From contig OZ037841.1 of the NCBI GenBank assembly GCA_964035575.1, positions 1,736,001-1,800,000 of the forward strand: DNA of 64,000 bases, given 5' to 3'. The stretch is from Rhynchopus sp. YZ270_cl-10. Its lineage: Eukaryota. A model generated the notes under the pieces. That model was not told the origin of the DNA. It did no database searches and saw only the letters and a list, made by a program, of their open reading frames with translations. Position 1 is the first letter of the stretch; each line of letters opens with the position of its first letter. This document shows positions 4,534-59,229 of this stretch, piece by piece. Made by a program: the position numbers and the translations under genes.

Positions 4534-6380
4534 CAGGGGTGTCGCTAATTTTGGGGAAATTTTTGAAAAATCTGAAATCGGGGTGCAAATTTTTTTTTTT
4601 ACGTGGGGATCAGAGTTTATTTTTCGATCCGGTTTTTCAGGCCTCAAGGGGGGTCGAAAATTTGTCAGTCGAGCCCGGGCGCGCTTCGCGCGCCCGGGTC
4701 CCCACCTTAGCTCAAGTTGGGGGCCTCCGGCGGAATGTGAGAATTCCGTGGTTGTCCAACTGCGGAGTTCGGCACTTCCCTGATATTTACACCAGGCAGA
4801 CGGGGCACACGAATTATCAGTAACCTCAGTACATTTACAAAAGAAACGGCGGTCATGGCACCCATAGGTTCCTGGCGAAGCCACGGTACGCAACATTTCA
4901 AAAAATTGCGCTTAAAATTACACATTTTTACCGCCAAACTATGTCATGGGAAGGGTGGGTTGCAAGCTTGCGCCGCAGGCGCACGGTACGCTACTTTTTG
5001 TCTTTTGCCATGCTGCATGCTTCCTTTTCCTTCGGCGTTTGACTAATTGAGTCGCGTTCTGGCTGTGACGGAGTCACTTTGTTCACGAGGCACGAGGCTG
5101 AATATGGCCCCATGGCGAGTGCACATGTGGGTGCATGCCGGGCCACCCCCTGGAAATTTTTCGGCCCCCGGATTATTTTTTCTCCACCCCCCCTGGACAC
5201 GTCTGAAAAACCCCCCAAGGGGGGTCGAACCCCCCCCCCACCCCCCCACAAAAAAATCTCTGGTGGGGATTTTTTTTTCCATCACCAGGGGGCGAAAAAA
5301 CAGTGTTTTGTGGCATTTCCGAGCCAATCCCAGGCTGTGGTGGGGGATATACGGAAAAATGGACAAACTTTTAGTGACTTAAATTTTCACAAAATATGAA
5401 CCCATACTCTTAAACATGGGTCATTTTCAGGTCTGAAAACCCAAATTCAGATGAAATTGTGGTGTTTTTGACACTACTGAGAACAGTAGGTAGCGCCGCA
5501 GGCGCACGGTACCCAACTTTTGTCTTTTTCCCTTTTCTCTGCGTTCTTTTGATTGTGCGAGCCTATTGCTCTCCACGGTGGGGTCACATGTGTGCGCTAA
5601 AATGCGCTAAAGTACCCTTACTATGAAGTATGAGATTCTCTGGTTTTAGCAAGGAAACCCTTGCAAGCATGTTCCCAGATCACGAAAAAAGGGGAGGCGT
5701 TTTTGGGCGTTTTTGTTGGCATCGTCCGATGCGGTGCAATTGCAGAAAGTGATGGGGTTTTGGAAAAATGGACGAGTTTTCGGTATTTAAGTTTTGACCA
5801 TTTTTTTATTCCTGTGCACTTTTCGAGACTGCCGATTCTCGTAAACAAGGGTCATGTTCAACTCTGAAAACACAGCTTCAGATGAAATTGTGGTGTTCTT
5901 GACTGAGAACGGTAGCGCCGCAGGCGCACGGTACCCAGCTTTTGTCTTTTTGTCCTTTCCTTTTTCTCTGCGTTCTTTTGATTGCGCGAGCCGATTGCTC
6001 TCCACGGTGGGGTCACATGTGTGCGCAAAAACACGCTATGGTACCTTTACTAAGGAAACCCTGGTTTGCAAAAAAAAAAAGGGTAAGGCAGGGTAAGGTA
6101 AATCTGGAAATCCCACCCAAAAAAAAAAAAATCTTCGCGGGGTGAGGGCGGCACCTGGGGATTTTCCCTGACCCCCAAAAACCTCGTTTTTGGAACGTTC
6201 TGACACAACCGAGTTCACGGTGGCCTCTCACTTAAAAAAAGAACAAGTTGTTAACACATTAAACCCACCCTGTATTAGGTGCAAATTTTTTTTTTCCTAC
6301 ACAGATTTTACTAGGGGTGCAATTTTTTTTTTTGGTTTTGAAAAAGTCGGGACCCTGGACCCGAATTAGCGACACCCCTG
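4534..6380. mobile_element. hAT-type non-autonomous element, copy 1 (carries a nested insertion)
   Basis: 17-bp TIR CAGGGGTGTCGCTAATT at both ends; 8-bp TSD GTGGGGAT at 4526-4533 and 6381-6388; an inverted copy lies at 19419-20589. Confidence 0.9.
4611..5262. mobile_element. Nested hAT-type MITE
   Basis: Imperfect TIRs CAGAGTTTATTTTT / AAAAAAATCTCTG; TSD GTGGGGAT at 4603-4610 and 5263-5270; the other copy of the host element has a single empty site (ATCCCCAC, 20513-20520). Confidence 0.8.
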
Positions 6381-7700
6381 GTGGGGATGCGTTCAAGAAT
6401 TAATCTCTTCCCCCCAAATCCTCTTTCGTATCTAGTTTTCTTTATCCAAACGTCAAGTGGACGCGTAATAATTTTAGGTGACTAAGCAGTCTTTCAGACG
6501 TATTTGTATTTCAAAAATATAACCACAGCGTACCCCAGATAGTTGTTCAATGGCAACAGTGATCCTCAGAGGGTGCGGTTTCGGCAAATGTATACCGTTC
6601 TGTGAGGTGATTCTTTTTAGATGACTAAGAACGTGAGGGTTAGGTTCTTGTTGTTAACTCACCCTTCAAATATCAGCAGTGCAGACACCCAGGGTGTGCT
6701 ACACGACACTCTTTCATTGTCCCCTCTCTCAAAGGTAAAAAAAAACCCCCCCGGGTTTTCTAGCACAGCTATTGGCGTTGCAAACTAGGAACACAAAAGC
6801 GTCAAATGGCGAAGTTTTTTTCTGGTTTTGTTGCACCCGGTACTGCGCTTTAAAATTCGGCCAAGAGTGATTTTCTCCTGGATTTTTGCCTGGATTTTCC
6901 CTGAGTAAAATTATATGGTAATTCTCTTTAAATTACTAAGTGCGTGATCGGCAGCCACCTAGTACTTTTTGTCAAAAAGTGTACTTTTTGGTTCCGCATT
7001 TCCCTGCTCAGGTTCTTCTGATTTCCTATTACAAACGGTCTTTTGCGAGGTGACTACGCTACGTGAATGCTTACGTTCCTTCCCAAGATTTCGTTTCCCC
7101 CTCCCCTCTGAAACGGTGTCCCATAGTGTTCTCGAATTGTGTCCACCTTTTGAAAAATTTGGAATACACAAAAACCTGCACGTGTGGTGACCACCTGCGT
7201 AGATGTCACACAACATAGCCATAATTATCAAACTGTTTAATGTGAAGCACGTGAGACACCTTTATTTTTTAATTTCCTCCCATTGGCTGCAGGGGTATGC
7301 AGGACTATTCTGTTTTGTCCTCAGGGAGGTGAACGTCCCTGCCCCTCAATGCAAAGTCTCGACCCAACCTTTTTGCTGCAAACGCATTTCTGTACCGAGC
7401 TACCTTAACCTCTACTTGATTGTCTCGAGTCCCGTTTTCTATTATTCCTTCAAACATTTCACAGCAGGTTTGCTTGTAACAGGAGACCAGCCCTGCCTGC
7501 ACTCCCCTTCAAAGGCGCTGTACAGAAAATCCTACAAAACAAGCGGCCTCTTTTGTTGTTTGAGGGACAGTTGCTTCTTCCTGTCCTCCCTCTTCACCGC
7601 GTGTAGGAGCACTGCTCCGAGGCTAGGGCCCGTAGCCTGGGGGGCGGGGGTTCCTTTTATTGTCCCTTCCCACGACGTCCACACAACACACAGACCTAGG

Positions 7701-10700
7701 ATGGGTGTTCACACAATGCAGATGTGGTGTGTGCTGCTGCACTGTGTTCACATTGCTGCCATTCAGATGCGCATCACAACAGGGATAAGCACCTCGTCAG
7801 GCACCGTTCATGGCATGACAATCGTATTAGACCAGACACACACAAGCACCGATGCCTGCACATACCGGCTGCCCCATGCCCCCAACACCTTAGGCGAGGT
7901 ATTCGACTTTACTGCTAATTGTGCCTTTCCCTCAACAGACATGTGGCGAGTGCGTCTCCGATCAGATGGCGGCTCTGATGGCTGGGAAGCACGCGTCAAA
8001 GTGTACAACGACGCAACGTCAGCATGGGAAGACTGGGTGGATTGGAATGGCGGAGACGCAGCATGGGTCAAGGAGGACGACTTTGGCATGTATCCCCACA
8101 AGCAGACCGTGGCACCACCCACACCTTCACCGCCCACACCTGCACCCCCGACACCTGCACCACCCACACCTTCACCTCCGACACCGGCACCACCCACACC
8201 TGCACCACCGACACCTGCACCGCCCACACCTGCACCCCCGACACCGGCACCACCCACACCTGCACCACCCACACCTGCACCTCCGACACCGGCACCACCC
8301 ACACCTGCACCACCGACACCTGCACCGCCCACACCAGCACCCCCGACACCGGCACCACCCACACCTGCACCGCCCACACCGGCACCGCCTACACCAGCAC
8401 CCCCGACACCAGCACCACCCACACCTGCACCGCCCACACCAGCACCCCCGACACCAGCACCACCCACACCTGCACCACCCACACCTTCACCGCCCACACC
8501 AGCACCCCCGACACCGGCACCACCCACACCAGCACCGCCGACACCAGCACCACCGACACCAGCACCACCCACACCTTCACCGCCCACACCTGCACCCCCG
8601 ACACCGGCACCACCCACACCTTCACCACCGACACCTGCACCACCCACACCTGCACCACCGACACCTGCACCGCCCACACCTGCACCGCCTACACCAGCAC
8701 CACCCACACCTTCACCACCGATACCTGCACCACCCACACCTGCACCACCGACACCTGCACCGCCCACACCAGCACCCCCGACACCGGCACCACCCACACC
8801 AGCACCGCCGACACCAGCACCACCGACACCAGCACCACCCACACCTTCACCGCCCACACCTGCACCCCCGACACCGGCACCACCCACACCAGCACCGCCG
8901 ACACCAGCACCACCGACACCAGCACCACCCACACCTTCACCGCCCACACCTGCACCCCCGACACCGGCACCACCCACACCTTCACCACCGACACCTGCAC
9001 CACCCACACCTGCACCACCGACACCTGCACCGCCCACACCTGCACCGCCTACACCAGCACCACCCACACCTTCACCACCGATACCTGCACCACCCACACC
9101 TGCACCACCGACACCTGCACCGCCCACACCTGCACCGCCTACACCAGAACCCCCGACACCAGCACCACCCACACCAGCACCGCCGACACCAGCACCACCG
9201 ACACCAGCACCACCCACACCTTCACCGCCCACACCTGCACCCCCGACACCGGCACCACCCACACCTTCACCACCGACACCTGCACCACCCACACCTGCAC
9301 CGCCTACACCAGAACCCCCGACACCAGCACCACCCACACCTTCACCGCCCACACCTGCACCCCCGACACCGGCACCACCCACACCTTCACCACCGACACC
9401 TGCACCACCCACACCTGCACCGCCTACACCAGAACCCCCGACACCAGCACCACCCACACCTGCACCGCCCACACCTTCACCGCCCACACCAGCACCCCCG
9501 ACACCGGCACCACCCACACCAGCACCGCCGACACCAGCACCACCGACACCAGCACCACCCACACCTTCACCACCCACACCTGCACCTCCGACACCGGCAC
9601 CGCTCACACCAGCACCGCCCACACCGGCACCTCCGACACCGACACCACTCACACCAGCACCACCCACACCGGCACCACCCACACCTGCACCGCCGACACC
9701 TGCACCTCCGACACCGGCACCGCTCACACCAGCACCCCCGACACCTGCACCGCCTACACCTGCACCACCCACACCGGTACCCCCGACGCCTGCGCCACCG
9801 ACACCTGCACCACCGACACCTGCACCCCCGACACCTGCACCGCCTACACCTGCACCACCCACACCGGTACCCCCGACGCCTGCGCCACCGACACCTGCAC
9901 CGGCAACTAATGCTCCACCAACACTTGCGCCGTCTACAACTGCTCCACTGACACAGGCACCGTCAACGTCTTCACCTCCCACAAGTGCTCCACTGACATC
10001 TGCGCCACTGACACAGGTGCCGTCAACTTCTGCACCGCCGACATCGGTGCCACCAACGTCCACACCACCAACACCTGCACCTCACACTGCCACACCACCG
10101 ACGGTGCCACCTGCAACACCAGCACCAACAGAGACAACAACAGCACCACTGCTGCGAGACACACCGACAAGCGGTATCAAAGCGTCTGTGAAGGAATACC
10201 TGAAGAAGGTGAACACGGCTGCTGGTGCTGCAGCAGTTCTGGGTGGTGGTGCAGGGAATGCAGGGAAGTTGGCTGTGCTGAACAGCTTTGGCTGTCAAAT
10301 GGACGACGTGGATGTGGGTGACGAGCCACTGGACTGGGAGTTCCACCCGACAACGATATCACTTGGGAGTGCAGTTGGGCGGTACAAGCTTGCGGCGATG
10401 GTGATGAACCCTGTGGTTGTGGTGTGCATTGCGCTGCTGGTGCTGTGTGCAGCTGCAGTCATGCAAGCAACACTGGGGTACGGACGTGAGAAGGCAATCA
10501 GTATGACACGTTTTCCTGGGATACTGTACATCCCATACCTGTTCTTGCTGCAGGGGACAAGCCTTGTGGCGGCACAGGTTGTGTTTGACCCTTCACGCTA
10601 CCCAACAATGGTTGCAGTGCTTTCGTACGTGACACTGGCACTGTGTCTGCTGTCGCCTGTGCTGCTGTACACCGCTGTGCTGCGCCATGTGAAGAGAGAG

Positions 10701-11561
10701 GCGGAGCTCTTTCCAGACCCTGCGATTGTGGGGAACCCAGCGACAGGCGAGCCTGGGAAGCGTTCCACCAGTTCTGTGTACAAATTTGCGTTTGGGACAG
10801 ACATCTGGGTGTCACGACAGAGCTACTTTGCAGAGAAGTACGGGAACTGCTTTGAGAACGTGAAGCCGACGTGTCTGTGGTACATCCTGTGTGAGCTTGC
10901 GGTGATTCTGTGTCTGTCGCTGTTGTCTGGATGGCAGCCCACCTCTGTTGGGTCTTGCAACACACGCAACATCTTCATCACGATTCTGCTGGTGCTGTTC
11001 TTTGTTGCAACAGTTGTCAAACGTCCGTTTTTGTCTGCGATGGACAACTTAATTGCTATCACACTGAGTGTTCTTATGGCTTCAGCAGTGTTGGGGATGA
11101 CGATAGCTATTGCGGCAGAGTCGTCTAAGGACAGTGCACTGTACGCAATCAGCAGTGTGTGTCTCTTGGTCTCTGCACTGATGGTGATGGTTAAGTGTTT
11201 GTGGGACTTTGGGATTTACGCCATGGATGTGCTGATCTCACGTCGCAGTGGTGCGCGTAAACAGGCGAGGTCTGAAGACACAGGGCTGCAGAAGGTGGCG
11301 ATGGAGACGGAGCTTGTGTCCGATCTCGTAGTGTCTGAAGCGACGTACAGCCCGTCGCATTTGTTACCGCAGCCGTCGACTCATGTGAACTTCAGCGACA
11401 CTCTATCACCAGATGTGCTGACCACGAACCCAGATGAGCTGAACATACTTCTGAAGGAACACGAAGGCAGCGACCATTCTCCAACCAGCGCGCTCAGCAG
11501 CTCCCGCAAAAGCAGTTCTTCCAGGAGGTACGGCAGGAAAGGCGACTGGCTGTGGGTGTAG
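7701..11561 (+). CDS. Multi-TM surface protein, paralog 2: signal peptide, PLAT/LH2-like domain, (PPTPA)n stalk, ~7-TM core
   Basis: Part of ORF 7203..11561; likely start is ATG 7701 or 7716, ahead of hydrophobic [13 protein letters not shown]. The N-domain IQMRITTG...SSGT...[13 protein letters not shown] resembles the PLAT consensus (by eye). Conserved TM core follows. Confidence 0.85.
8113..9905 (+). repeat. Coding 15-bp tandem repeat, (PPTPA)n mucin-like stalk
   Basis: Units of the form CCACCCACACCTGCA with synonymous and S/E/V/L variants. Confidence 0.95.
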
Positions 11562-19418: not shown

Positions 19419-20589
19419 CAGGGGTGTCGCTAATTCGGGTCCAGGGTCCCGACTTTTTCAAAACCAAAAAAAAAATTTGCACCCCTAGTAAAATCTGTGT
19501 AGGGAAAAAAAAAAATTTGCACCTAATACAGGGTGGGTTTAATGTGTTAACAACTTGTTCTTTTTTTAAGTGAGAGGCCACCGTGAACTCGGTTGTGTCA
19601 GAACGTTCCAAAAGCGAGGTTTTTGGGGGTCAGGGAAAATCACCAGGTGCCGCCCTCACCCCGCGAAGATTTATTTTTTTGGGTGGGATTTCCTTACCCT
19701 GCCTTACCCTTTTTTTTTGCAGACCAGGGTTTCCTTAGTAAAGGTACCATAGCGTGGTTTTGCGCACACATGTGACCCCACCGTGGAGAGCAATCGGCTC
19801 GCGCAATCAAAAGAACGCAGAGAAAAAGGAAAAGACAAAAAGACAAAAGCTGGGTACCGTGCGCCTGCGGCGCTACCGTTCTCAGTCAAGAACACCACAA
19901 TTTCATCTGAAGCTGTGTTTTCAGACTTGAACATGACCCTTGTTTACGAGAATTGGCAGTCTCGAAAAGTGCACAGGAATAAAAAAATGGTCAAAACTTA
20001 AATACCGAAAACTCGTCCATTTTTCCAAAATGACCCCATCACTTTCTGCAATTGCACCGCATCGGACGATGCAATCAACAAAAACGCCTCCCCTTTTTTC
20101 GTGATCTGGGAACATGCTTGCAAGGGTTTCCTTGCTAAAACCAGAGAATCTCATACTTCATAGTAAGGGTACTTTAGCGTATTTTAGCGCACACATGTGA
20201 CCCCACCGTGGAGAGCAATAGGCTCGCACAATCAAAAGAACGCAGAGAAAAGGGAAAAAGACAAAAGTTGGGTACCGTGCGCCTGCGGCGCTACCTACTG
20301 TTCTCAGTAGTGTCAAAAACACCACAATTTCATCTGAATTTGGGTTTTCAGACCTGAAAATGACCCATGTTTAAGAGTATGGGTTCATATTTTGTGAAAA
20401 TTTAAGTCACTAAAAGTTTGTCCATTTTTCCGTATATCCCCCACCACAGCCTGGGATTGGCTCGGAAATGCCACAAAACACTGTTTTTTCGCCCCCTGGT
20501 AATGGAAAAAAAATCCCCACGTAAAAAAAAAAATTTGCACCCCGATTTCAGATTTTTCAAAAATTTCCCCAAAATTAGCGACACCCCTG
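19419..20589. mobile_element. hAT-type non-autonomous element, copy 2 (inverted relative to 4534-6380)
   Basis: TIR CAGGGGTGTCGCTAATT; 8-bp TSD TATATAGG at 19411-19418 and 20590-20597; near-identical to the reverse complement of copy 1 minus its nested insert. Confidence 0.9.
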
Positions 20590-22064: not shown

Positions 22065-22285
22065 TATTTTGCAACTGACGCGCTGGAGAGGCCCTGGCCA
22101 AACATGGCGTGTTAGGGGAAATATATTCGTCGCACAGATTAGATCAGAGACCCCACCCGATATGTTTCTCATTTTACCTCTTTTGTGCTCCGCCACCGAC
22201 ACTCCCATTTTCTGTACTTCAGGCAATAATCATATACCATCACACACTGACACAGTCCGCGTGTGCTGGAAACAATCAATTTTTT

Positions 22286-22355
<70 letters not shown>
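22065..22355 (+). repeat. Split direct repeat A1 (ends in ~69-nt poly-A)
   Basis: Matches 26596-26860 except for poly-A length (~43 nt there). Confidence 0.92.
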
Positions 22356-22358
<3 letters not shown>

Positions 22359-22404
22359 TTTCAGAAACAATACAGAAACAGAAAAAGCAGGGGAGATACA
22401 GAAG

Positions 22405-22731
22405 AAAAAGCAAAAGCAGGGACTACGAGCCATACTCTAAAAGGATACAGAAGTAAAAAGCAAAAGCAGGGACTACGAGCCATACTCTAAAAGGATACAG
22501 AAGTAAAAAGCAAAAGCAGGGACTACGAGCCATACTCTAAAAGGATACAGAAGTAAAAAGCAAAAGCAGGGACTACGAGCCATACTCTAAAAGGATACAG
22601 AAGTAAAAAGCAAAAGCAGGGACTACGAGCCATACTCTAAAAGGATACAGAAGTAAAAAGCAAAAGCAGGGACTACGAGCCATACTCTAAAAGGATACAG
22701 AAGTAAAAAGCAAAAGCAGGGACTACGAGCC
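22405..22731 (+). repeat. 50-bp tandem repeat (~6.5 copies) in the element's 5' leader
   Basis: Unit AAAAAGCAAAAGCAGGGACTACGAGCCATACTCTAAAAGGATACAGAAGT recurs with period 50. Confidence 0.95.
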
Positions 22732-22776
22732 CAGAGAGGAGCCAGGGACCACGAGCCCTTTTTTCAAACCGTCAAC

Positions 22777-23823
22777 ATGGCCCTTACCCGGGACGACTTC
22801 CCCGCCAACGCGCACGACGTTGAGTGGGCGCAGGTGGAGGTGGGCAGAGCAGAGGGGCAGCCGGCAGAGGCGGCGGCGGGATGCGTGTTCCCGAGCTGCG
22901 CCACGGTGCACGGAGGAGGCGCAAACTGCTGGCGCTGCGGCCACCGAACTACGGTGACATGCATCCGCAACGTACTCCCGCAGGGCCAAACACGCACGGA
23001 GTTCACGGATGGCATTCTGGAGTTGGGGTGGTCGTGTCCAGTGTGTGAGTGGATACGCGCTTTCGCGATCCCACTGGACGACGCCGTGAGCAACGCTTCT
23101 GACCCGGCACCGGATATCCCAGCACAGCAGAACGCAGCACAACAGCAGCAACAACCACAGAACGCACCACAACAGCAGGACATGATGGTGATCCTGATGC
23201 AGATGAGGGACCAGATGGTTGCGTTGAACGGCAGGATGACGGCGTTGGAGGAACAGCGAAACCTCGCACTACCCCAGGGTTTCCATGCAGAGGTGGTCGG
23301 GACATGGAAAAACGTACACGTACCCCAGGTGAAGACACTGATCAGGACGGAAGTCAGCAAAGTATTCAAAGAATACGCACTTCCTGCAAACCTTGATGTG
23401 GCCCGCGAGCACGAGGTAGAGATGAGACGCAATTTCGATTTCCTCGACACCACTCTAAACGCTTTAAAACCAAACCCAGCAGACAACGGGGGGACGATGG
23501 CGGTGTTGCACAGGGTAGTGGTGACCATGTCCGCCTCCACCCATCTGGGCATATACGGCAGGAACATCCGTCTGACGTACGAGAAGAGGGCAAACGGCTA
23601 TCTCCCCGAAGCTTTCACCGTGCAGCTGCAGACGCGTATGTTGGAGCAGCTGGTAGAGGCGGGGAAGAATAAAAAGAAGGAGTACAACCGAAACAACGAC
23701 CGAGGCACCACGGGGGGTTACCGAGGGGACACAAACCAAAACGACAGGAAGAGGGACTACGACCGTACCAGCGACCGACGCACCGAGAACCAGGGAAAGG
23801 GGGGACGCGGGGGGAAGAACTGA
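22777..23823 (+). CDS. Gag-like ORF1 of YR retrotransposon 1
   Basis: 348 aa; first ORF after the leader; Cys-rich N-terminus (CVFPSC, CWRC, CPVC), Q-rich and coiled-coil middle, R/G-rich basic end. Gag assignment is positional. Confidence 0.75.
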   Translation: MALTRDDFPANAHDVEWAQVEVGRAEGQPAEAAAGCVFPSCATVHGGGANCWRCGHRTTVTCIRNVLPQGQTRTEFTDGILELGWSCPVCEWIRAFAIPLDDAVSNASDPAPDIPAQQNAAQQQQQPQNAPQQQDMMVILMQMRDQMVALNGRMTALEEQRNLALPQGFHAEVVGTWKNVHVPQVKTLIRTEVSKVFKEYALPANLDVAREHEVEMRRNFDFLDTTLNALKPNPADNGGTMAVLHRVVVTMSASTHLGIYGRNIRLTYEKRANGYLPEAFTVQLQTRMLEQLVEAGKNKKKEYNRNNDRGTTGGYRGDTNQNDRKRDYDRTSDRRTENQGKGGRGGKN

Positions 23824-23838
23824 CTGCCCTACGCGCAG

Positions 23839-24789
23839 ATGCTCTTTCCTCCCCCCAGCGAAAGAGGCAGAAAACGACAACACGAGACCCCCCTCACAAA
23901 CAAACAGGAAAATACAATAATTCAATCGACTCAGACAACCCTCGCCCGATGCTTAGCGGAGTCCTCCTGGAAGAGCCTCCAAAGCACGTGTCGGCGATAC
24001 TTCGAATTCAAAAACGCTTGGGAGGAGAAACACACATGCACAATCTCACACGAAGTGGCGCTCATATATTGGGTGGAAAAGAAAAGGTCTTTAGACGGAG
24101 TCACGGAGAGTTCGGCGCTGCAATATACGATGGACGTGACGGCGGCGTTACGGCGGACAGGGGACGCACGCCTGGCGGAGTCCCAAATGGTGCAGGATTA
24201 TCGTCGGAGTCTGCGAAGGATGGGAGCACTGATGCCGGGCAAGCAGGCCAAGCCAGCACGTCCCTCCGAAGTCGCATCGGCGATCGAGCTGGAGAAGAAG
24301 CCGTTGATACGTTTAGCACTGGCTATGTGTTGGGTGACGGCGGGGAGGGCGTCGGACGTGCTGCGACTCAAGAAGCAGGAGATCACCATCAGACCAGACG
24401 GAGTGGTGGCAGTGCATTGGAGGGAGACCAAAGGAGATCCTTTCCAGCTGGGACGCTTCACGGGCCACCATCTCACAAAAACAGCGCAGGAAATTTTAGT
24501 ACAACGACTGCAAGCTGTCCGCGATCAGCAAGGTTTGGTTTTCCCACCAGGGATAACATCGCACCAACTCGGAGCCGCACTACAGAGAGTCAACAGGGAG
24601 CTGTCGTCGCACTCACTGAGAAGAGGGGCTGCGCAGTTCCTCCTGAAACAGAAGGTGCCCCTCGACGAAATATGCCTCCTCACCCGCCACCAAACAACGG
24701 AGTCTCTGATCCGATACGTCGCAGAAGCGGGACTACAGAGGGTGGACGTGACGGCAACCATGTCGCAGCAGCTGCAGGCAGCCATGTGA
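23839..24789 (+). CDS. Tyrosine recombinase of YR retrotransposon 1
   Basis: Catalytic residues in order: AGRASDV (R), TKGD (K), SHSLRRGAA (HxxR), TRHQT (H), LIRYV (Y). Confidence 0.93.
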   Translation: MLFPPPSERGRKRQHETPLTNKQENTIIQSTQTTLARCLAESSWKSLQSTCRRYFEFKNAWEEKHTCTISHEVALIYWVEKKRSLDGVTESSALQYTMDVTAALRRTGDARLAESQMVQDYRRSLRRMGALMPGKQAKPARPSEVASAIELEKKPLIRLALAMCWVTAGRASDVLRLKKQEITIRPDGVVAVHWRETKGDPFQLGRFTGHHLTKTAQEILVQRLQAVRDQQGLVFPPGITSHQLGAALQRVNRELSSHSLRRGAAQFLLKQKVPLDEICLLTRHQTTESLIRYVAEAGLQRVDVTATMSQQLQAAM

Positions 24790-26474: not shown

Positions 26475-26542
26475 CAGCGGAGCGTAATCCCATTCATCGT
26501 TCGCGCGGCGTCCCTTCGATCCGAGGGTCCTTAGGGTCCTGA

Positions 26543-26816
26543 GTGGAAGCGTGCAATGCAACAAACGGTCGAGATCTGATCAAGCGAAACGGATATATTT
26601 TGCAACTGACGCGCTGGAGAGGCCCTGGCCAAACATGGCGTGTTAGGGGAAATATATTCGTCGCACAGATTAGATCAGAGACCCCACCCGATATGTTTCT
26701 CATTTTACCTCTTTTGTGCTCCGCCACCGACACTCCCATTTTCTGTACTTCAGGCAATAATCATATACCATCACACACTGACACAGTCCGCGTGTGCTGG
26801 AAACAATCAATTTTTT

Positions 26817-26863
<47 letters not shown>

Positions 26864-26931
26864 TGTCGGCAGGTGGAAGCGTGCAATGCAACAAACGGTC
26901 GAGATCTGATCAAGCGAAACGGATATATTTT
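26543..26931 (+). repeat. 3' split-direct-repeat block B1-A2-B2
   Basis: GTGGAAGCGTGCAATGCAACAAACGGTCGAGATCTGATCAAGCGAAACGGATATATTTT occurs at 26543 and 26873, flanking the A2 copy. Confidence 0.92.
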
Positions 26932-27551: not shown

Positions 27552-28612
27552 TACTTTTTGGTTCCACATTTCTGCGCAGGTTCTTCTGATTTCCTATTAC
27601 AAACGGTCTTTTGCGAGGTGACTACGTGAATGCTTACGTTCCTTCCCAAGATTTCATTTCGTTTCCCCCTCCCCTCTGAAACGGTGTCCCACAGTGTTCT
27701 CGAATTGTGTCCACCTTTTGAAAAATTTGGAATACACAAAAACCTGCACGTGTGGTGACCACCTGCGTAGATGTCACACAACATAGCCATTATTATCAAA
27801 CTGTTTAATGTGAAGCACGTGAGACACCTTTATTTTTTAATTTCCTCCCATTGGCTGCAGGGGTATGCAGGACTATTCTGTTTTGTCCTCAGGGAGGTGA
27901 ACGTCCCTGCCCCTCAATGCAAAGTCTCGACCCAACCTTTTGGTGTTCTTTACATACAGTGCGACGCGGCGAAGTCGGCCTCAGACGTGGCTGAGGCGTA
28001 CTCGGGAATACTTACGTTTAAGTGCGCCTCAAAATAAACTCAGACGTACCTGAGGCGTTAATCGTAAGTGATACCGAGCACGCCTCAGGCACGTCTCAGA
28101 TGTATTTTCCGGCCAGGCCACTTTTAAGGCGTACTAGGCCTCCTGCATTGTATGAAATTATGTATACTTTTAGTTGTTATTTTTTTTGAGACTGGGGATC
28201 CTGTGTCCCTTGTCTCATGATGGTGTGCCGTGCTGTGAAGAGTGCTGGATAATGCCTCCTTCTTAAATTGGGTCTTACAGGCTGGTGAGAAGGGAAGGGG
28301 GTTTTCTCGGCACACTGACCCTGCGACAATGTGCAGGCAGGCAAACAGAACAGACACAACTTCAAAGTGAAGGCGCTTCACTGATTAAGAAAGGATGGTT
28401 TGGTACTGATAAAAAAATGACAGTAGTTTTTTTCTTTACACCCTTTGCACCCACCCCTGCCCATATTTCCTGCAAATGCATTTCTGTACCGAGCTACCTT
28501 AACCTCTACTTGATTGTCTCGAGTCCCGTTTTCTATTATTCCTTCAAACATTTCACAACAGGTTTTTTTCGAACAGGGGACCAGCCCCCTGCCTGCACTC
28601 TTTCTTCATTGC

Positions 28613-31600
28613 ATGTTGGCGGCAGTGGTGTTAGTATGCACGTTGGCAGACTACAGACTCGTGGGGTGTTATATTGACGTCCCTTCAGACCGTGACATCA
28701 ACGACCACGAGGACCGCTCGAAGGCGACCTTTGAGCTGTGCAAGCAACTGTGCTCTGTGGATGCGCCAGGTGCGCCGTACAACGTGTTCGGCCTGCAGGA
28801 CTACGATGAGTGTCGCTGTGGCAACAGCTTCGGCAAGCACGGCCTCGCACCAGATACAGAGTGCAACACACCCTGCCAAAAAGACACCACACAGATGTGC
28901 GGTGGCGCCAGCAGGAACTCAGTCTACCTCGTAGAAACCGACTCCCCGACAACCGCACCCGCAACAGACCCACCAGCTACTGACCCACCTGCAACTGATC
29001 CACCTGCCACGGATCCACCTGCTACTGACCCACCTGCAACAGACCCACCAGCTACTGACCCACCTGCCACGGATCCACCAGCTACTGATCCACCTGCTAC
29101 TGACCCACCTGCCACGGATCCACCTGCTACTGATCCACCTGCAACTGACCCACCTGCCACTGATCCACCTGCAACTGATCCACCTGCAACTGACCCACCT
29201 GCCACGGATCCACCAGCTACTGACCCACCTGCTACTGACCCACCTGCCACGGATCCACCTGCAACTGACCCACCTGCCACTGATCCACCTGCAACTGATC
29301 CACCTGCAACTGACCCACCTGCCACTGATCCACCTGCAACTGACCCACCTGCTACTGACCCACCTGCCACTAATCCACCTGCCACGGATCCACCAGCTAC
29401 TGACCCACCTGCTACTGACCCACCTGCCACTGATCCACCTGCTACTGATCCACCTGCAACTGACCCACCTGCCACTGATCCACCTGCCACGGATCCACCA
29501 GCTACTGACCCACCTGCCACGGATCCACCTGCAACTGACCCACCTGCTACTGATCCACCTGCCACTGATCCACCTGCCACGGATCCACCAGCTACTGACC
29601 CACCTGCCACGGATCCACCTGCAACTGACCCACCTGCTACTGATCCACCTGCAACTGACCCACCTGCCACTGATCCACCTGCAACTGACCCACCTGCCAC
29701 TAATCCACCTGCCACGGATCCACCAGCTACTGACCCACCTGCTACTGACCCACCTGCCACGGATCCACCTGCTACTGACCCACCTGCTACTGATCCACCT
29801 GCAACTGATCCACCTGCCACGGATCCACCAGCTACTGACCCACCTGCTACTGACCCACCTGCCACGGATCCACCTGCAACTGACCCACCTGCAACTGATC
29901 CACCTGCAACTGATCCACCTGCAACTGATCCACCTGCCACGGATCCACCTGCAACTGATCCACCTGCCACGGATCCACCTGCCACAGACCCACCTGCAAC
30001 TGACCCACCAGCTACTGACCCACCTGCCACGGATCCACCACTAACTGACGCACCAGTGACTACATCTCCAAAAACCAACGCACCGACAACGTTCGTACCA
30101 GTCACACCTGCCCCACTGACGGAACTACCACCAACATCAACACCTCCTTCACCTGCACCACCAACACCTGCACCTCACACTGCCACACCACCGACAGTGC
30201 CACCTGCAACACCAGCACCAACAGAGACGACAACAACAGCACCGCTGCTGCGAGACACACCGACAAGCGGTATCAAAGCGTCTGTGAAGGAAGACCTGAA
30301 GAAGGCGAACACGGCTGCTGGTGCTGCAGCAGTTCTGGGTGGTGGTGCAGGGAATGCAGGGAAGTTGACTGTGCTGAACAGCTTTGGGTGCGAAGTGGAC
30401 GACGTGGATTTAGGTGACGAGCCACTGGACTGGGAGTTCCACCCGACAACAATATCACTTGGGAGTGCAGTTGGGCGGTACAAGCTTGCGGCGATGGTGA
30501 TGAACCCTGTGGTTGTGATGTGCATTGCGCTGCTGGTGCTGTGTGCAGCTGCAGTCATGCAAGCAACACTGGGGTACGGACGTGAGAAGGCAATCAGTGT
30601 GGCACGTTTTCCTGGGATACTGTACGTCCCATACCTGTTCTTGCTGCAGGGGACAAGCCTTGTGGCGGCACAGGTTGTGTTTGACCCTTCACGCTACCCA
30701 ACAATGGTTGCAGTGCTTTCGTACGTGACACTGGCACTGTGTCTGCTGTCGCCTGTGCTGCTGTACACCGCTGTGCTGCGCCATGTGAAGAGAGAGGCGG
30801 AGCTCTTTCCAGACCCTGCGATTGTGGGGAATCCAGAGGCAGGCGAGCCTGGGAAGCGTGCGAACAGTTCTGTGTACAAGTTTGCGTTTGGGACAGACAT
30901 CTGGGTGTCACGACAGAGCTACTTTGCAGAGAAGTACGGGAACTGCTTTGAGAACGTGAAGCCGACGTGTCTGTGGTACATCCTGTGTGAGCTTGCGGTG
31001 ATTCTGTGTCTGTCGCTGTTGTCTGGATGGCAGCCCACCTCTGTTGGGTCCTGCAACACACGCAACATCTTCATCACGATTCTGCTGGTGCTGTTCTTTG
31101 TTGCAACAGTTGTCAAACGTCCGTTCTTGGCTGCGATGGACAACTTGATTGCTATCACGCTGAGTGTTCTTATGGCTTCAGCAGTGTTGGGGATGACAAT
31201 AGCTATTGCGGCAGAGTCATCTAAGGACAGTGCACTGTACGCAATCAGCAGTGTGTGTCTCTTGGTCTCTGCACTGATGGTGATGGTTAAGTGTGTGTGG
31301 GACTTTGGGATCTATGCCATGGATGTGCTGATCTCACGTCGCAGCCGTGCACGTGAACAGGCTAGGTGTCAGGAGAAGGAGCTTATCCAGAATGATCTTG
31401 AGCTGGAGCTCGTGTCGGATGTGGGGCTGAGCCCCAAGCATTCGAACGCTCTTTCGGATTTGCCATATTCCCCAGTCCAGTCTTCGTCTGTTCTGATGGT
31501 GAACAGCGATGCGTCTGGCTCACCCTCACCGGCACATGCTGCAGAAGGAGTAATCAAGCTACAGGAGATTGAACCCCCAACTCCAAGAGAGAGGGCGTCA

Positions 31601-31717
31601 CTGAGCTCCTCCCGCCATAGCGCGCCACCTAGTACCGAGCATACTACAGTGTTGGACCTCTCTGCCTGGCGGAAGCGGCGTGAGTCTGAACACACGAGGG
31701 TCCGAGTGTGGGTGTAG
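28613..31717 (+). CDS. Multi-TM surface protein, paralog 3: signal peptide, WSC domain, (ATDPP)n stalk, ~7-TM core
   Basis: Likely ATG 28613 (MLAAVVLVCTLA); WSC signature YRLVGCY...C...C...FGLQDYDECRCG...ECNTPC...MCGG...SVY; conserved TM core. Confidence 0.9.
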   Translation: MLAAVVLVCTLADYRLVGCYIDVPSDRDINDHEDRSKATFELCKQLCSVDAPGAPYNVFGLQDYDECRCGNSFGKHGLAPDTECNTPCQKDTTQMCGGASRNSVYLVETDSPTTAPATDPPATDPPATDPPATDPPATDPPATDPPATDPPATDPPATDPPATDPPATDPPATDPPATDPPATDPPATDPPATDPPATDPPATDPPATDPPATDPPATDPPATDPPATDPPATDPPATDPPATDPPATDPPATNPPATDPPATDPPATDPPATDPPATDPPATDPPATDPPATDPPATDPPATDPPATDPPATDPPATDPPATDPPATDPPATDPPATDPPATDPPATDPPATDPPATDPPATNPPATDPPATDPPATDPPATDPPATDPPATDPPATDPPATDPPATDPPATDPPATDPPATDPPATDPPATDPPATDPPATDPPATDPPATDPPATDPPATDPPATDPPATDPPLTDAPVTTSPKTNAPTTFVPVTPAPLTELPPTSTPPSPAPPTPAPHTATPPTVPPATPAPTETTTTAPLLRDTPTSGIKASVKEDLKKANTAAGAAAVLGGGAGNAGKLTVLNSFGCEVDDVDLGDEPLDWEFHPTTISLGSAVGRYKLAAMVMNPVVVMCIALLVLCAAAVMQATLGYGREKAISVARFPGILYVPYLFLLQGTSLVAAQVVFDPSRYPTMVAVLSYVTLALCLLSPVLLYTAVLRHVKREAELFPDPAIVGNPEAGEPGKRANSSVYKFAFGTDIWVSRQSYFAEKYGNCFENVKPTCLWYILCELAVILCLSLLSGWQPTSVGSCNTRNIFITILLVLFFVATVVKRPFLAAMDNLIAITLSVLMASAVLGMTIAIAAESSKDSALYAISSVCLLVSALMVMVKCVWDFGIYAMDVLISRRSRAREQARCQEKELIQNDLELELVSDVGLSPKHSNALSDLPYSPVQSSSVLMVNSDASGSPSPAHAAEGVIKLQEIEPPTPRERASLSSSRHSAPPSTEHTTVLDLSAWRKRRESEHTRVRVWV
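28958..30041 (+). repeat. Coding 15-bp tandem repeat, (ATDPP)n stalk
   Basis: Units such as GCTACTGACCCACCT with synonymous variants. Confidence 0.95.
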
Positions 31718-40800: not shown

Positions 40801-41368
40801 CACGAATGTGTTTGCGTGACCCGCGAACGTCACTACAGAGCTTTGTACTATACCACTCCTTCTTTGTGTAGGCAGTTTTTTGCGTTGTTGTTGGTCTTTT
40901 TCTGGTTCCGAGCCTGCCAAGATGTCAGTTCTTGAAGCAGGTGAGGACTAAAGGGCACCTGGGAATATGTCACTCTCTCGGCGAGAATGTGCCCCAGATG
41001 CCCTTCATCTTTCATATGTCTGCCCACCCGACATAAGAGTCACCCCGCCTTGTGATATCTTTATTGATGCTCAGTCGGAGGCAGCTCCCATGTAATACCT
41101 TCCTAAGAATCATTTATGTCTTTCAGAAGTTTGTTTGTGTGTCGGGTGGTACTTTTCTGCTTGTTTTGTTCACCGAATGTGTACACACCTGTGGGGCACA
41201 TTCATCTTTCACATTTTATCTATCTGTCAACGACTAGAGGTAAATACATAAAGCACATCGCCTATCTTTTTTGACATGTTCCTCTCTTCACATCTTCACA
41301 CACCCACATCAACAGATACATGGGTTGGGCCTTCCTCCCACAAACAACGCTGCTGCAGCAACAGAACA

Positions 41369-44300
41369 ATGCGAGGACACACCATGTACGCCGCAGTCGT
41401 CTTTTTACTGCTTGTGTGTGAAGTGGTGTCGCAGCCGACTGAAATACCGTGTGATCGGGCCGTTGTGACTGTGGTGCAGTTCACAGACAAGGATAACATT
41501 CAGCTCCCCGTGCCGCCCAGTGAGGAGACACTGTTTGGGGGTGTGGTTCAGGTTGACATGGACGTTGTCATTAACGCATACACAGAAAATGGTCGTTTTG
41601 TGGAGTTTGCAAATGGTCAGGGTAGCGACAACTTTATGATTGGACAGTACGGAACTGCAGGAAAAATGTACGTGTCCTCCACTTGGTCAACACAGCGGAT
41701 ACGTGTGATCTACGAGACGGCACCCCTGCCGTTGGGACAGAAGTTTCACGTTCGGGTCGTTGTTGTCCCTATTGACACTGCGACAGCAAACTACTACATA
41801 TATCTTGATGGCACGCTTGTAGCCGACGGCGTCAGTGAGGCACTCAGATACGTCACTCGCTCCATGTTATTGATTGGCACAAGCACTTTTGTAGATCCAA
41901 GCGCCCCAAACTCCCACGAACCCCTCGACGGGAGTGTCACTGATGGTATCCTGAAAATGTGCCCCGATGCCACACCTGCACCACCTACAGCTATTCCGAC
42001 TGCAGTGCCCGATACGATCCCAACTGCAATGCCGTGCACTCGCGACATTGTGACTGTGGCACAGTTCACAGACAAGGATAACAGACAGCTCCCCGTGCTG
42101 CCCAGTGAGGAGACACTGTTTGGGGGTGTGATTCAGGTTGACATGGACGTTATTATCAATGCATACACCAATTACGGGCGTTTTGTTGATATTGGGAACG
42201 GCGTCAGCAGCGACAACCTTATTATTGGACAGTACAAAGACACAGGGTATCTGTATGTCAGCTGCACTTGGACAGATCCGAAGTTACGTGTGATCTACGA
42301 AACACAGCTGCCGTTGGGAGAGATGTTTCATCTTCGGGTCATTTGCGTGCCCATTGACGACGCGACATCAACCTACTACGTGTACATCAACGACGTATTT
42401 GTCATCGAGGGACCCAGTGAGGCACTCAGATACGTAACTCGTTCGCATTTCTTGATTGGCGTAAGCAGCTTCACCATCGGATCAATACCCCACATAGACC
42501 TCGACGGCAGTGTCACGAACTATATGATGGTAATGTGTCCTGAGGAGACACCTGCCCCGCCAACTGCTATTCCAACAGCAGTGCCCACAGCAGTACCCAC
42601 AGCAGTGCCAACAGCAGTACCCACAGCAGTGCCCACAGCAGTGCCCACAGCAGTGCCCACAGCAGTGCCCACAGCAGTGCCCACAGCAGTGCCCACAGCA
42701 GTGCCCACAGCAGTGCCCACAGCAGTGCCCACAGCAGTGCCCACAGCAGTGCCCACAGCAGTGCCCACAGCAGTGCCCACAGCAGTGCCCACAGCAGTGC
42801 CCACAGCAGTGCCCACAGCAGTACCAACAGCAGTGCCAACAGCAGTGCCAACAGCAGTGCCAACAGCAGTGCCAACAGCAGTGCCCACAGCAGTGCCCAC
42901 AGCAGTGCCCACAGCAGTGCCAACAGCAGTGCCAACAGCAGTGCCAACAGCAGTGCCAACAGCAGTGCCAACAGCAGTGCCAACAGCAGTGCCAACAGCA
43001 GTGCCAACAGCAGTGCCAACAGCAGTGCCAACAGCAGTGCCAACAGCAGTGCCCACAGCAGTGCCAACAACAACTCCAATAGCTGAACCTACTGCTTTGC
43101 CCACAGCTGTACCAACAGCAACTCCAACAACACCTGCACCACCAACACCTGCACCTCACACTGCCACACCACCGACAGTGCCACCTGCAACACCAGCACC
43201 AACAGAGACGACAACAGCACCACTGCTGCGAGACACACCGACAAGCGGTATCAAAGCGTCTGTGAAGGAAGACCTGAAGAAGGCGAACACGGCTGCTGGT
43301 GCTGCAGCAGTTCTGGGTGGTGGTGCAGGGAACGCAGGGAAGTTGGCTGTGCTGAACGGCTTTGGCTGTCAAATGGACGACGTGGATGTGGGTGAGGATC
43401 CACTGGACTGGGAGTTCCACCCGACAACGATATCACTTGGGAGTGCAGTTGGGCGGTACAAGCTTGCGGCGATGGTGATGAACCCTGTGGTTGTGGTGTG
43501 CATTGCGCTGCTGGTGCTGTGTGCAGCTGCAGTCATGCAAGCAACACTGGGGTACGGACGTGAGAAGGCAATCAGTGTGACACGGTTTCCTGGGATACTG
43601 TACGTCCCATACTTGTTCTTGCTGCAGGGGACAAGCCTTGTGGCGGCACAGGTTGTGTTTGACCCTTCACGCTACCCAACAATGGTTGCAGTGCTTTCGT
43701 ACGTGATACTGGCACTGTGTCTGCTGTCGCCTGTGCTGCTGTACACCGCTGTGCTGCGCCATGTGAAGAGAGAGGCGGAGCTCTTTCCAGACCCTGCGAT
43801 TGTGGGGAACCCAGCGACAGGCGAGCCTGGGAAGCGTTCCACCAGTGCTGTGTACAAGTTTGCGTTTGGGACAGACATCTGGGTGTCACGACAGAGCTAC
43901 TTTGCAGAGAAGTACGGGAACTGCTTTGAGAACGTGAAGCCGACGTGTCTGTGGTACATCCTGTGTGAGCTTGCGGTGATTCTGTGTCTGTCGCTGTTGT
44001 CTGGATGGCAGCCCACCTCTGTTACGTCCTGCAACACACGCAACATCTTCATCACGATTCTGCTGGTGCTGTTCTTTGTTGCAACAGTTGTCAAACGTCC
44101 GTTCTTGTCTGCGATGGACAACTTGATTGCTGTTGTGCTGAGCCTGTTGCTTGCGTCTGCAGTGTTGGGGATGACGATAGCTATTGCGGCAGAGTCATCT
44201 AAGGACAGTGCACTGTACGCAATCAGCAGTGTGTGTCTCTTGGTCTCTGCACTGATGGTGATGGTTAAGTGTTTGTGGGACTTTGGGATCTACGCCATTG

Positions 44301-44698
44301 ATGTGCTGATCTCACGTCGCAGTGGTGCGCGTGAACAGGCGAGGTCTGAGGACACAGTGCTGGTGAAGAATGATTTTGAGCTGGAGCTCGCACTGAGCCC
44401 TCAGAATTCGGACCCTCTTTCGGATGTGCCATATTCTGCTCAGACATGTGTCCAGCCTTCGTCTGCTCTGATGGGGAATATCGCTACGTCTGGCTTCCCG
44501 TTTCCTGAAGACGCACCATACACTACGCACACTGAAGACCCACAGAAGCAACACGACACTGCAGTCCTCTCGAAGAGCAGTACACTGAACTCCTCCAGAC
44601 GTGATGTGCTGCCTTTGTCTGTTGCTGAACGTTCCATTGCGCCGTGTCCTGCGCAAGACTCTTCACGATGGAAAGAGGCTACGAGTATTCGACTGTAG
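41369..44698 (+). CDS. Multi-TM surface protein, paralog 4: signal peptide, two ConA/LamG-like domains, (PTAV)n stalk, ~7-TM core
   Basis: Likely ATG 41369 or 41384 (MYAAVVFLLLVCEVVS); two tandem Cys-bounded ~170-aa domains with RFVEF.NG..SDN, LPLG..FH, Y.YLDG/IND, LLIG and LDGSV motifs, resembling Laminin_G_3 by eye. Confidence 0.88.
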   Translation: MRGHTMYAAVVFLLLVCEVVSQPTEIPCDRAVVTVVQFTDKDNIQLPVPPSEETLFGGVVQVDMDVVINAYTENGRFVEFANGQGSDNFMIGQYGTAGKMYVSSTWSTQRIRVIYETAPLPLGQKFHVRVVVVPIDTATANYYIYLDGTLVADGVSEALRYVTRSMLLIGTSTFVDPSAPNSHEPLDGSVTDGILKMCPDATPAPPTAIPTAVPDTIPTAMPCTRDIVTVAQFTDKDNRQLPVLPSEETLFGGVIQVDMDVIINAYTNYGRFVDIGNGVSSDNLIIGQYKDTGYLYVSCTWTDPKLRVIYETQLPLGEMFHLRVICVPIDDATSTYYVYINDVFVIEGPSEALRYVTRSHFLIGVSSFTIGSIPHIDLDGSVTNYMMVMCPEETPAPPTAIPTAVPTAVPTAVPTAVPTAVPTAVPTAVPTAVPTAVPTAVPTAVPTAVPTAVPTAVPTAVPTAVPTAVPTAVPTAVPTAVPTAVPTAVPTAVPTAVPTAVPTAVPTAVPTAVPTAVPTAVPTAVPTAVPTAVPTAVPTAVPTAVPTAVPTAVPTAVPTAVPTAVPTTTPIAEPTALPTAVPTATPTTPAPPTPAPHTATPPTVPPATPAPTETTTAPLLRDTPTSGIKASVKEDLKKANTAAGAAAVLGGGAGNAGKLAVLNGFGCQMDDVDVGEDPLDWEFHPTTISLGSAVGRYKLAAMVMNPVVVVCIALLVLCAAAVMQATLGYGREKAISVTRFPGILYVPYLFLLQGTSLVAAQVVFDPSRYPTMVAVLSYVILALCLLSPVLLYTAVLRHVKREAELFPDPAIVGNPATGEPGKRSTSAVYKFAFGTDIWVSRQSYFAEKYGNCFENVKPTCLWYILCELAVILCLSLLSGWQPTSVTSCNTRNIFITILLVLFFVATVVKRPFLSAMDNLIAVVLSLLLASAVLGMTIAIAAESSKDSALYAISSVCLLVSALMVMVKCLWDFGIYAIDVLISRRSGAREQARSEDTVLVKNDFELELALSPQNSDPLSDVPYSAQTCVQPSSALMGNIATSGFPFPEDAPYTTHTEDPQKQHDTAVLSKSSTLNSSRRDVLPLSVAERSIAPCPAQDSSRWKEATSIRL
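42570..43070 (+). repeat. Coding 12-bp tandem repeat, (PTAV)n stalk
   Basis: Units CC[C/A]ACAGCAGTG. Confidence 0.95.
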
Positions 44699-46748: not shown

Positions 46749-46975
46749 ATGCGAGGACACACCATGTACGCCGCAGTCGTCTTTTTACTGCTTGTGTGTG
46801 AAGTGGTGTCGCAGACTGAATTGTCGTGCACTAGGGTCGTTATGACTGGTGCAGTTTACAAACAAGGATAACAGACAGCTTCCACTGCCGCCCACTGAAG
46901 AGTCTTGGTTGACATGGACGTTGTCATTAACGCATACACCAATTACGGGCGGGTTGTTTAGTTTTGCGAACGCAT
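46749..46975 (+). pseudogene. Degenerate 5' fragment of a LamG-type paralog
   Basis: Same leader and signal peptide as paralogs 4 and 6 (MRGHTMYAAVVFLLLVCEVVSQ), then frameshift, stop at 46869-46871 and deletions in the domain sequence. Confidence 0.8.
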
Positions 46976-47183
46976 GGTCGACACAGGTTTTGATACTGGG
47001 ATAGCTAACCGCCCCTTGTTTGGCCTGTCTGCAGCGTTGCACCGAAGGTGCACGAAGACAAGCCAAGGCATTAGCATCATACCTGTTCAAATCAAAACCA
47101 CGTTTTCATTTTTCACTTCAGAACATAACCACCCTCTCTGTACCCCACCCACCCTTCACAGATTCAACACGCAAACCACAACA

Positions 47184-53155: not shown

Positions 53156-53204
53156 CGGAAATTGACCAAAAACGAGAACTGTACTGTACTGTACTCCCAA
53201 TCCC

Positions 53205-53452
53205 CTGTGTATACTGTGTATACTGTGTATACTGTGTATACTGTGTATACTGTGTATACTGTGTATACTGTGTATACTGTGTATACTGTGTATACTGTGT
53301 ATACTGTGTATACTGTGTATACTGTGTATACTGTGTATACTGTGTATACTGTGTATACTGTGTATACTGTGTATACTGTGTATACTGTGTATACTGTGTA
53401 TACTGTGTATACTGTGTATACTGTGTATACTGTGTATACTGTGTATACTGTG
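53205..53452. repeat. (CTGTGTATA)n 9-bp satellite, ~27 copies
   Basis: Perfect tandem array. Confidence 0.97.
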
Positions 53453-59010: not shown

Positions 59011-59229
59011 TTGAAAAAGTTTGTTTCAATGGTGTGGCGCCTTAACCGATTCCCCGTGTTTCTACCGGTTGTCGCTCCGTAAAGGGGGGTTCCAGATGTT
59101 GGAATTTTTTTTTTTTGTTTTCGTTGGTGAAGCTTTTAAACGGCGGTATTTGCATTTCCGGAATCCGTCCGACCAGTGGTGGGGTCAATTTGCCAAAATG
59201 GACAAGTTCTCGTTTTTGGTCAATTTCCG

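Follow-up and report, generated by a model that had tools for sequence, protein, structure and literature searches.

The window, a stretch of 64 kb of DNA analysed as a whole, contains two gag-YR-RT retrotransposons, element 1 on the plus strand and element 2 on the minus strand. In both elements, the RT frame (-1 with respect to YR) is free of stops through the whole of YR. The initial annotation had claimed this, and it was confirmed by the ORF phases and by shuffles. A comparison with relatives indicates that selection holds the -1 frame over YR open. Judging from the sequences, we consider it probable that these are VIPER-type elements whose RT frame stays open over YR because ribosomes would shift by -1 before the gag stop and cross a sequence-free linker.

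Element 1 starts with the A1 copy of a split direct repeat (22065–22329, plus strand; 265 nt, 100% identity to 26596–26860), which merges into a poly-A tract. This is followed by a leader with a 50-nt tandem repeat (22355–22754; period 50, central copies 100% identical) and a gag-like ORF ending in TGA (22777–23823), which has no Pfam match and is called gag from its position alone. The YR ORF (23824–24789) lies in the gag frame, has its first ATG at 23839 and matches PF00589 (E 3.3e-07, passing the curated cut-off). It contains no stop in the -1 frame vs 14 in the +1 frame. The RT frame was described as open from 23673, which was borne out: it extends to 26474 and comprises 933 open codons, 372 of them upstream of the YR stop. 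It consists of a linker of ~370 codons (gag end and YR), followed by RT and RNase H. The Pfam matches in this frame (RVT_1, E 1e-05; RT_RNaseH, E 0.07) are both under the cut-off, and homologues were found. The nearest named relative of the RT is from Diplonema ambulator (43% identity). The 3' repeats (26543–26931) comprise B1 (26543–26601), A2 (26596–26860) and B2 (26873–26931), and both ends of the element lie within T runs, where one would look for the target-site duplication that VIPER-like elements lack. The B repeat (26541–26600) showed a depth far above that of the body and many differing flanks in assembled read contigs. This suggests many solo or non-autonomous derivatives, related to element 1 as SIRE is to VIPER.

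Element 2 is read on the minus strand. Its gag-like ORF (62609–64000) has its 5' end outside the window and ends in TGA-CTC (stop at 62611–62609). The YR ORF (61415–62608) is in the gag frame and fully overlapped by the open -1 frame. It has no Pfam YR match and was detected with our own YR profile, a match that is not independent, as the profile was seeded with this YR itself. It is 43–48% identical to YR-like domains of Diplonema papillatum gene models. The RT frame (59763–62735; 990 open codons) comprises a linker of ~440 codons and then RT and RNase H. It was said to be open over 62612–61415, which holds true, but its start is at 62735 and not at 62612, i.e. 123 nt earlier. Pfam matches were RT_RNaseH_2 (E 7e-04) and RVT_1 (E 0.07), and 61 homologues were found; the nearest named relatives are from D. 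papillatum, with 45–53% RT identity for most matches. The 3' repeats (59365–59786) are B1 (59786–59678) and B2 (59473–59365), 109 nt long and 99% identical, with A2 presumed between them; A1 is expected beyond the window edge. In both elements, the Pfam RT and RNase H matches in the -1 frame all lie downstream of YR, and the overlap has no Pfam match. The end of element 2 abuts a 9-nt tandem repeat (59220–59365) with inverted copies near 53.2–53.5 kb (53204–53469), so repeat targeting is possible. There is also a 7-nt repeat near 58.9 kb.

The gene order had been regarded as unusual in comparison with gag-RT-YR. This was wrong, as gag-YR-RT with an overlap is the published layout of VIPER and TATE (excerpts of PMC12278014 and PMC6681497). 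Both are described there with a gag-like gene, two overlapped ORFs (YR and RT/RH) and the repeats A1...B1-A2-B2 (excerpt of PMC12278014). The order gag-like gene, YR, RT/RH was found in both window elements, with gag assigned by position alone, as in the excerpted part of PMC6681497. The YR and RT/RH ORFs overlap in both; the split direct repeats are complete in element 1, and B1 and B2 were seen in element 2. VIPER (order DIRS; Trypanosoma cruzi, Bodo saltans, Crithidia) shares this order, overlap and repeats, at a size of ~4.9 kb. In T. cruzi VIPER, ORF1 occupies 1–1341, ORF2 runs in the gag frame from 1342, and ORF3 runs in the -1 frame from 1218, 124 nt ahead of the gag end (excerpt of PMC6681497); the frame phases are the same in the window elements. 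Among the 15 VIPER copies listed in that excerpt, ORF3 spans ORF2 in 8, the overlap is at least 600 nt in 12 and there is none in 1 (PMC6681497). By eye, the YR and RT motifs of element 2 resemble those of T. cruzi VIPER. The window elements differ from VIPER in that their nearest named relatives are from Diplonema, the host probably not being a trypanosomatid, and that no CX2CX4HX4C box was seen by eye at the gag end of either. Named kinetoplastid VIPER proteins were absent from the matches of the RT/RH protein searches and from the quick tree. A recoding model does not appear in the excerpts of the VIPER descriptions (PMC12278014, PMC6681497).

TATE of Leishmania braziliensis and others has the same order and repeats. 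Its RT/RH overlaps the last ~890 nt of ORF2 in L. braziliensis, in -1 phase (excerpt of PMC6681497). It differs in a much longer ORF2 and in an ORF3 that opens in ORF2 and not in gag, and two B. saltans copies form one ORF (excerpt of PMC6681497). With a short ORF2 and an ORF3 opening in gag, both window elements appear to fit VIPER and not TATE, a criterion that is our own reading of the published tables and not a published rule. TATE-like ORFs are mentioned for D. papillatum (excerpt of PMC10161547). An in-frame fusion of YR to RT was seen in the database proteins P0003 and P0023 and in the B. saltans TATE copies. The frame is switched inside YR in P0023 (likely a broken copy or an assembly error) and near the YR end in P0003. 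DIRS-like, PAT-like and Ngaro elements share YR and RT/RH, but RT precedes YR there, and DIRS-like elements carry inverted repeats and a methyltransferase domain, unlike the window elements, in which YR precedes RT, the repeats are direct and no methyltransferase Pfam match was found. Long ORF overlaps were reported in half of 28 DIRS1-like elements, while Ngaro and Viper were described as usually without overlap (excerpt of PMC3266345), which later papers contradict for VIPER.

An open -1 frame over the whole YR ORF is rare by chance. After synonymous permutation, it was open in 203 of 100,000 shuffles (0.2%) for element 1 and in 586 of 100,000 (0.6%) for element 2; the codon-shuffle check proposed in the initial annotation thus came out in its favour. 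When YR was recoded with each element's own gag and RT codon usage, the frame was open in 27 (element 1) and 2 (element 2) of 100,000 sequences. The signal was weaker for the profile-matched YR domain only (P 0.013 in element 1, 0.069 in element 2), and the two elements alone are therefore suggestive rather than decisive. As controls, gag and the part of RT outside the overlap contained 5, 14, 11 and 26 stops in their -1 frames, a deficit that was not significant (P 0.17–0.24). None of the 12 checked read-contig variants inside the element 1 overlap creates a stop, but copy polymorphism has low power, because only 39 of 654 YR-silent changes could make a -1 stop.

Relatives were collected by an RT-motif scan, which yielded 55 metagenome loci that were not picked by frame openness. 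Loci with at least 200 YR profile positions were kept (41 of 55, plus both window elements) and 14 of 55 were dropped. Among the latter, L004, L023 and L031 have long open RT frames, with YR not detected. Clustering at 60% YR identity gave 30 clusters (lineages), in 26 of which YR precedes RT. The -1 frame of the YR domain had zero stops in 22 of these 26 lineages (20 of 24 without the window elements). For the 22 open lineages, permutation predicted 145 stops in total, and none was observed; the +1 frame over the same domain had 9–22 stops per locus. The remaining 4 of 26 clusters (5 loci) are closed, with 10–18 stops each, and group as a single clade (support 94) in a quick tree. This tree was relied on only for the closed clade and for the neighbours of element 1. 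An AT-rich spacer of 116–178 nt and an own ATG lie ahead of RT in the closed clade, meaning that the frame is not kept open where RT starts by itself. Intact relatives with stops in this frame, named beforehand as evidence against the claim, do exist, but they are restricted to this single clade with its separate RT gene. Its loci (L040, L042, L044, L045, L047) have the order gag-YR-RT without overlap, and separate mRNAs are possible.

For relatives known as proteins without DNA, the N-terminal extension of the RT fitted a YR in the neighbouring frame in all four long relatives of element 1. In the case of element 2, this was found in 17 of 23 (one marginal), with a misfit in 6; the 23 are the 61 matches minus 30 that were too short and 8 with an in-frame YR. 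Proteins without DNA are open by the way they are selected, so they show spread and not frequency. No relative was found in viral contigs. In loci with the order RT-YR (L049, L050, L052, L054, L055), the -1 frame of the YR domain is also stop-free (10–14 stops expected each), and in L049 and L055 the RT ORF itself crosses YR and continues for ~800–900 nt. Openness of the -1 frame over YR may be ancestral and shared among YR retrotransposons. Five contigs (L001, L002, L014, L031, L038) have RT at the start and gag-YR again at the end. This layout suggests elements in tandem or assembled as circles, which could stem from tandem arrays or a circular intermediate.

The overlap peptide behaves like a linker. 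In 10 pairs of open relatives, divergence at 4-fold sites was similar in YR (0.28–0.84) and RT (0.25–0.77). Suppressed synonymous variation in YR, for which a test had been proposed, was looked for at 4-fold sites and not found. The -1 peptide identity was 0.22–0.45 in nine pairs and 0.74 in the closest, with YR 51–92% identical; the two closed pairs gave 0.22 and 0.28. The overlap peptides of the two window elements did not align (best E 0.11). The family of element 1 comprises 20 database proteins, 15 of them spanning residues 122–372. Among its full-length proteins, the overlap varies at as many as 16 of 251 residues and the RT at no more than 7 of 561; of the 24 distinct changes in the overlap, 18 are silent in YR. 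As the peptide is not conserved and the silent sites of YR are free, selection acts on openness alone. A frame kept open and little else is what a linker predicts. The term dual-coding, used at the outset, is therefore valid in the weak sense that stops are purged, but silent sites and peptide are unconstrained. The overlap peptides are rich in R/G/A/P/S, as described (share 0.52 and 0.55), but this is no special disorder signature, since closed elements reach 0.40–0.47. Their hydrophobic content is about that of permuted YR. Overlap composition was rejected as evidence of designed disorder, being mostly what any -1 reading of YR yields.

The proposed entry to this linker is at the end of gag. 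Among the 22 open clusters, the junction is readable and gag shares the frame of YR in 16; in another 4, the upstream ORF shares the frame of RT, and contig ends cut the last 2. In 15 of these 16 lineages with gag in the YR frame, the opening of the RT frame lies 5–82 codons ahead of the gag stop. An in-phase X XXY YYZ heptamer was found within the last 15 gag codons in 9 of the 16 (7 of 14 without the window elements). Codon shuffles of the gag tail gave an expectation of 1.0 lineage (0.9 without the window), and none of 5000 matched the observed count. The 15-codon window was picked after the data were seen, but the excess persists with windows of 10, 25 and 40 codons; the lineages are related, so the P values overstate independence. 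Per position, there were 10 heptamers in 170 in the gag tail vs 9 in 3077 further up gag and 2 in 448 off phase. Examples of the heptamers are G GGA AAC (element 2, L011, L041), T TTA AAC (L020), A AAA AAC (L018), G GGT TTT (L036) and G GGA AAG (element 1). The published copies of three kinetoplastids were read by eye afterwards and not used to set the window. In T. cruzi VIPER, A AAA AAC lies at codon -11 relative to the gag stop, and 10-bp complementary arms then surround this stop. In B. saltans, G GGA AAC stands at codon -10 and the -1 frame is open into the annotated ORF3; in Crithidia fasciculata, A AAA AAA stands at about codon -9.

Both window elements have an in-phase heptamer upstream of the zero-frame stop together with an open -1 frame, as in a programmed -1 cassette. 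Such a cassette also has a stimulatory RNA structure 5–9 nt downstream; the stems predicted here have z values of -1.0 to -2.5. In element 1, the candidate slippery site G GGA AAG (23793–23799, plus strand) lies in gag phase, 9 codons upstream of the gag stop; it is presumably of a weaker type, owing to its final G. A hairpin is predicted across the gag stop (23801–23856; -26.6 kcal/mol, z -0.97), and a shifted 65-nt window gave z -2.5, a weak signal. In element 2, the candidate site G GGA AAC (62636–62642, minus strand) lies in gag phase, 10 codons upstream of the gag stop. A predicted 13-bp stem (62589–62630), with the gag stop in its loop, begins 5 nt past this site; 71 nt folded gave -29.9 kcal/mol and z -1.33, which is weak. 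Hairpins after the heptamer had a mean z of -1.04 vs -0.04 in controls (P 0.013), with several elements showing none. A conserved structure after the gag stop was looked for in the lineages and not found (z -3.4 to +1.5).

The -1 route is not universal. No canonical heptamer was found within the last 15 gag codons in 7 of the 16 lineages. In L005/L007, where the RT frame opens 3 codons past the gag stop, slipping ahead of that stop cannot give access to RT. Four open lineages (L003/L013, L025, L028 and L035) have their upstream ORF in the frame of RT, so that readthrough, rather than a -1 shift, would be required for RT. In these five loci (L003, L013, L025, L028, L035), the upstream ORF ends in TGA or TAG-G, and YR would be reached by another route. 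The exceptional junctions are consistent with a rewiring and would still need translation across YR.

YR may be reached through the gag stop itself. UGA-C is a leaky stop context, UGA-CUA especially. The gag stop is TGA-CT in 11 of the 16 lineages (9 of 14 without the window elements), among them element 1 (TGA-CTG at 23821–23826, plus strand), where it is a candidate readthrough site in a context enriched among relatives. In L020 and L021, the context is TGA-CTAG. Across these loci, 48 of 1905 stop triplets overall had the TGA-CT context, and none of the YR stops (0 of 16) or RT stops (0 of 14) did. UGA readthrough is the simplest reading of how YR is made, and we lean towards it on these contexts. 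The CT could instead serve the -1 frame or an RNA signal. An ATG lies 5 codons past the gag stop in element 1, and T. cruzi VIPER has TGA-ATG; with an AUG this close after the stop, a restart is possible for YR. Further ATGs flank the YR stop of element 2 (codons -2 and +1), and element 1 has three inside the overlap, so own-start routes are possible, above all for YR. In favour of the frameshift reading, many open relatives lack an ATG near the RT start.

In the proposed mechanism, the gag UGA would end translation for the majority of ribosomes, which yields Gag. A few would slip by -1 just before this stop and produce Gag-linker-RT-RNase H, and a few would pass UGA-C, or restart at a nearby AUG, and produce YR (Gag-YR in the case of readthrough). 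A single RNA would thereby give much Gag and little of each enzyme. The occurrence and rates of frameshifting and readthrough, a role of the hairpins and the fusion protein as the active RT are what we infer. The behaviour of the overlap supports a translated linker reached by frameshift, as suggested in the initial annotation, through the purge of stops, the shuffles and the enrichment of heptamers. In retroviral and LTR gag-pol genes, a slippery heptamer or a leaky stop at the end of gag sets a high Gag:enzyme ratio. The difference here is that the two signals are close together (within ~30 nt), that each would serve a different enzyme, and that a ribosome that has shifted must traverse ~1 kb of another gene. 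In hepadnaviruses, the polymerase spacer overlaps preS, which is a sequence-tolerant spacer of an RT protein in the alternative frame of another gene, with no frameshift. The likeness to the YR-overprinted linker is in kind only, and no homology is implied. Extended to all VIPER-type elements, including T. cruzi VIPER, the proposal is that all three proteins come from one RNA via a compact double recoding switch. A -1 site would lead through ~1 kb of alternative YR frame to RT, and a leaky UGA-C ~10 codons on would lead to Gag-recombinase; lineages would have rewired the pairing of enzyme and route, and one clade would have split off its RT gene. For this wider proposal, we see the chances as evenly balanced.

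An unlikely alternative is that RT starts from its own AUG, within the overlap or where it ends. Leaky scanning, stop-restart or trans-splicing of a spliced leader to a shorter mRNA would give access to this AUG, and the open frame would be a long N-terminal extension or a remnant. This alternative would fit the TGATG at the YR stop of element 2, the Met at the YR stop in L011, L017 and L035, and the closed clade, which evidently uses a separate RT start. Euglenozoans do trans-splice (excerpt of PMC6681497). Many database proteins of the element 2 family start within 15 residues of the YR stop, but such starts are ambiguous, because TGA read in the -1 frame is nTG, a start accepted by gene callers. 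The open lineages L006, L013, L020, L022, L033, L038 and L041 lack any Met between 45 codons upstream of the YR stop and codon 25 of RT. Moreover, an own AUG leaves unexplained why the frame opens just before the gag stop and why slippery sites are there. We regard it as quite improbable that cis-splicing or another event at the RNA level near the gag end joins Gag to the RT frame. This would also require an open frame across YR, and D. papillatum gene models fuse YR and RT in frame in 8 of 31 tested, with P0082 starting gag-like. However, the joints of these models are inconsistent, and some lose >100 RT residues, as mispredicted introns do. No joints were found in contigs of unspecified kind from eight sequencing runs matched to element 1, a result that does not bear on expression. 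Slippery sites are not predicted by splicing.

That the overlap peptide is a functional domain, i.e. dual coding in the strong sense, is very unlikely. In every one of the 22 open YR-RT lineages, YR has less third-position T than RT (by a narrow margin in one), and in the 4 closed ones the two are about equal; this may mean that aromatic residues or Cys are selected against in the -1 product. But low third-position T follows from stop avoidance too. Silent changes are not suppressed, the peptide identity of open relatives is at the level of closed pairs, the window peptides do not align and the overlap lacks a Pfam match. Hardly credible is an open frame that is a by-product of GC-rich third positions and never translated. 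The P value of 0.069 for the YR domain of element 2 alone and the third-position T of just 5–9% in the two YR domains would allow it, but permutation that keeps the composition expects the 145 stops where none occurs, and the gag and RT controls are not stop-depleted.

The window has further features apart from the two elements. Five long single-exon ORFs with Pro/Thr-rich tandem repeats (7203–11561, 28514–31717, 41252–44698, 46962–50939 and 53878–57711) are likely a surface protein family. In the three repeat-rich ORFs that were scanned, a weak TRP-like membrane region was seen twice, in one case together with a WSC domain, and a PT repeat once. An inverted repeat of ~1 kb (98–99% identity; 5266–6295 and 19506–20518, 13–14 kb apart) flanks the first repeat-rich gene, and its arms are possible DNA transposon ends.

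The gene order and the overlap were known before. In the literature searched, we found no tests of selection on this frame and no mention of a sequence-free linker, of the slippery sites or of the context of the gag stop. Neither frameshifting nor readthrough in VIPER, TATE or DIRS-type elements was found in the literature searched, including excerpts of PMC7192593, PMC3783388 and a Chlamydomonas preprint. The original VIPER paper, the main DIRS and subscription reviews and Repbase are outside this scope and may anticipate part of it. How the overlapping enzyme genes of YR retrotransposons are expressed is not addressed in the literature searched, and the comparison points to exact sites of ~60 nt. 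VIPER-type elements are extended here to probable diplonemids and many environmental lineages. If true, the model would add programmed frameshifting and readthrough in a euglenozoan element and account for the 300–600 unalignable N-terminal residues of annotated VIPER RT ORFs. It would also mean that a long alternative frame can be held open without selection on its sequence, and dual-coding tests based on silent sites would miss such cases.
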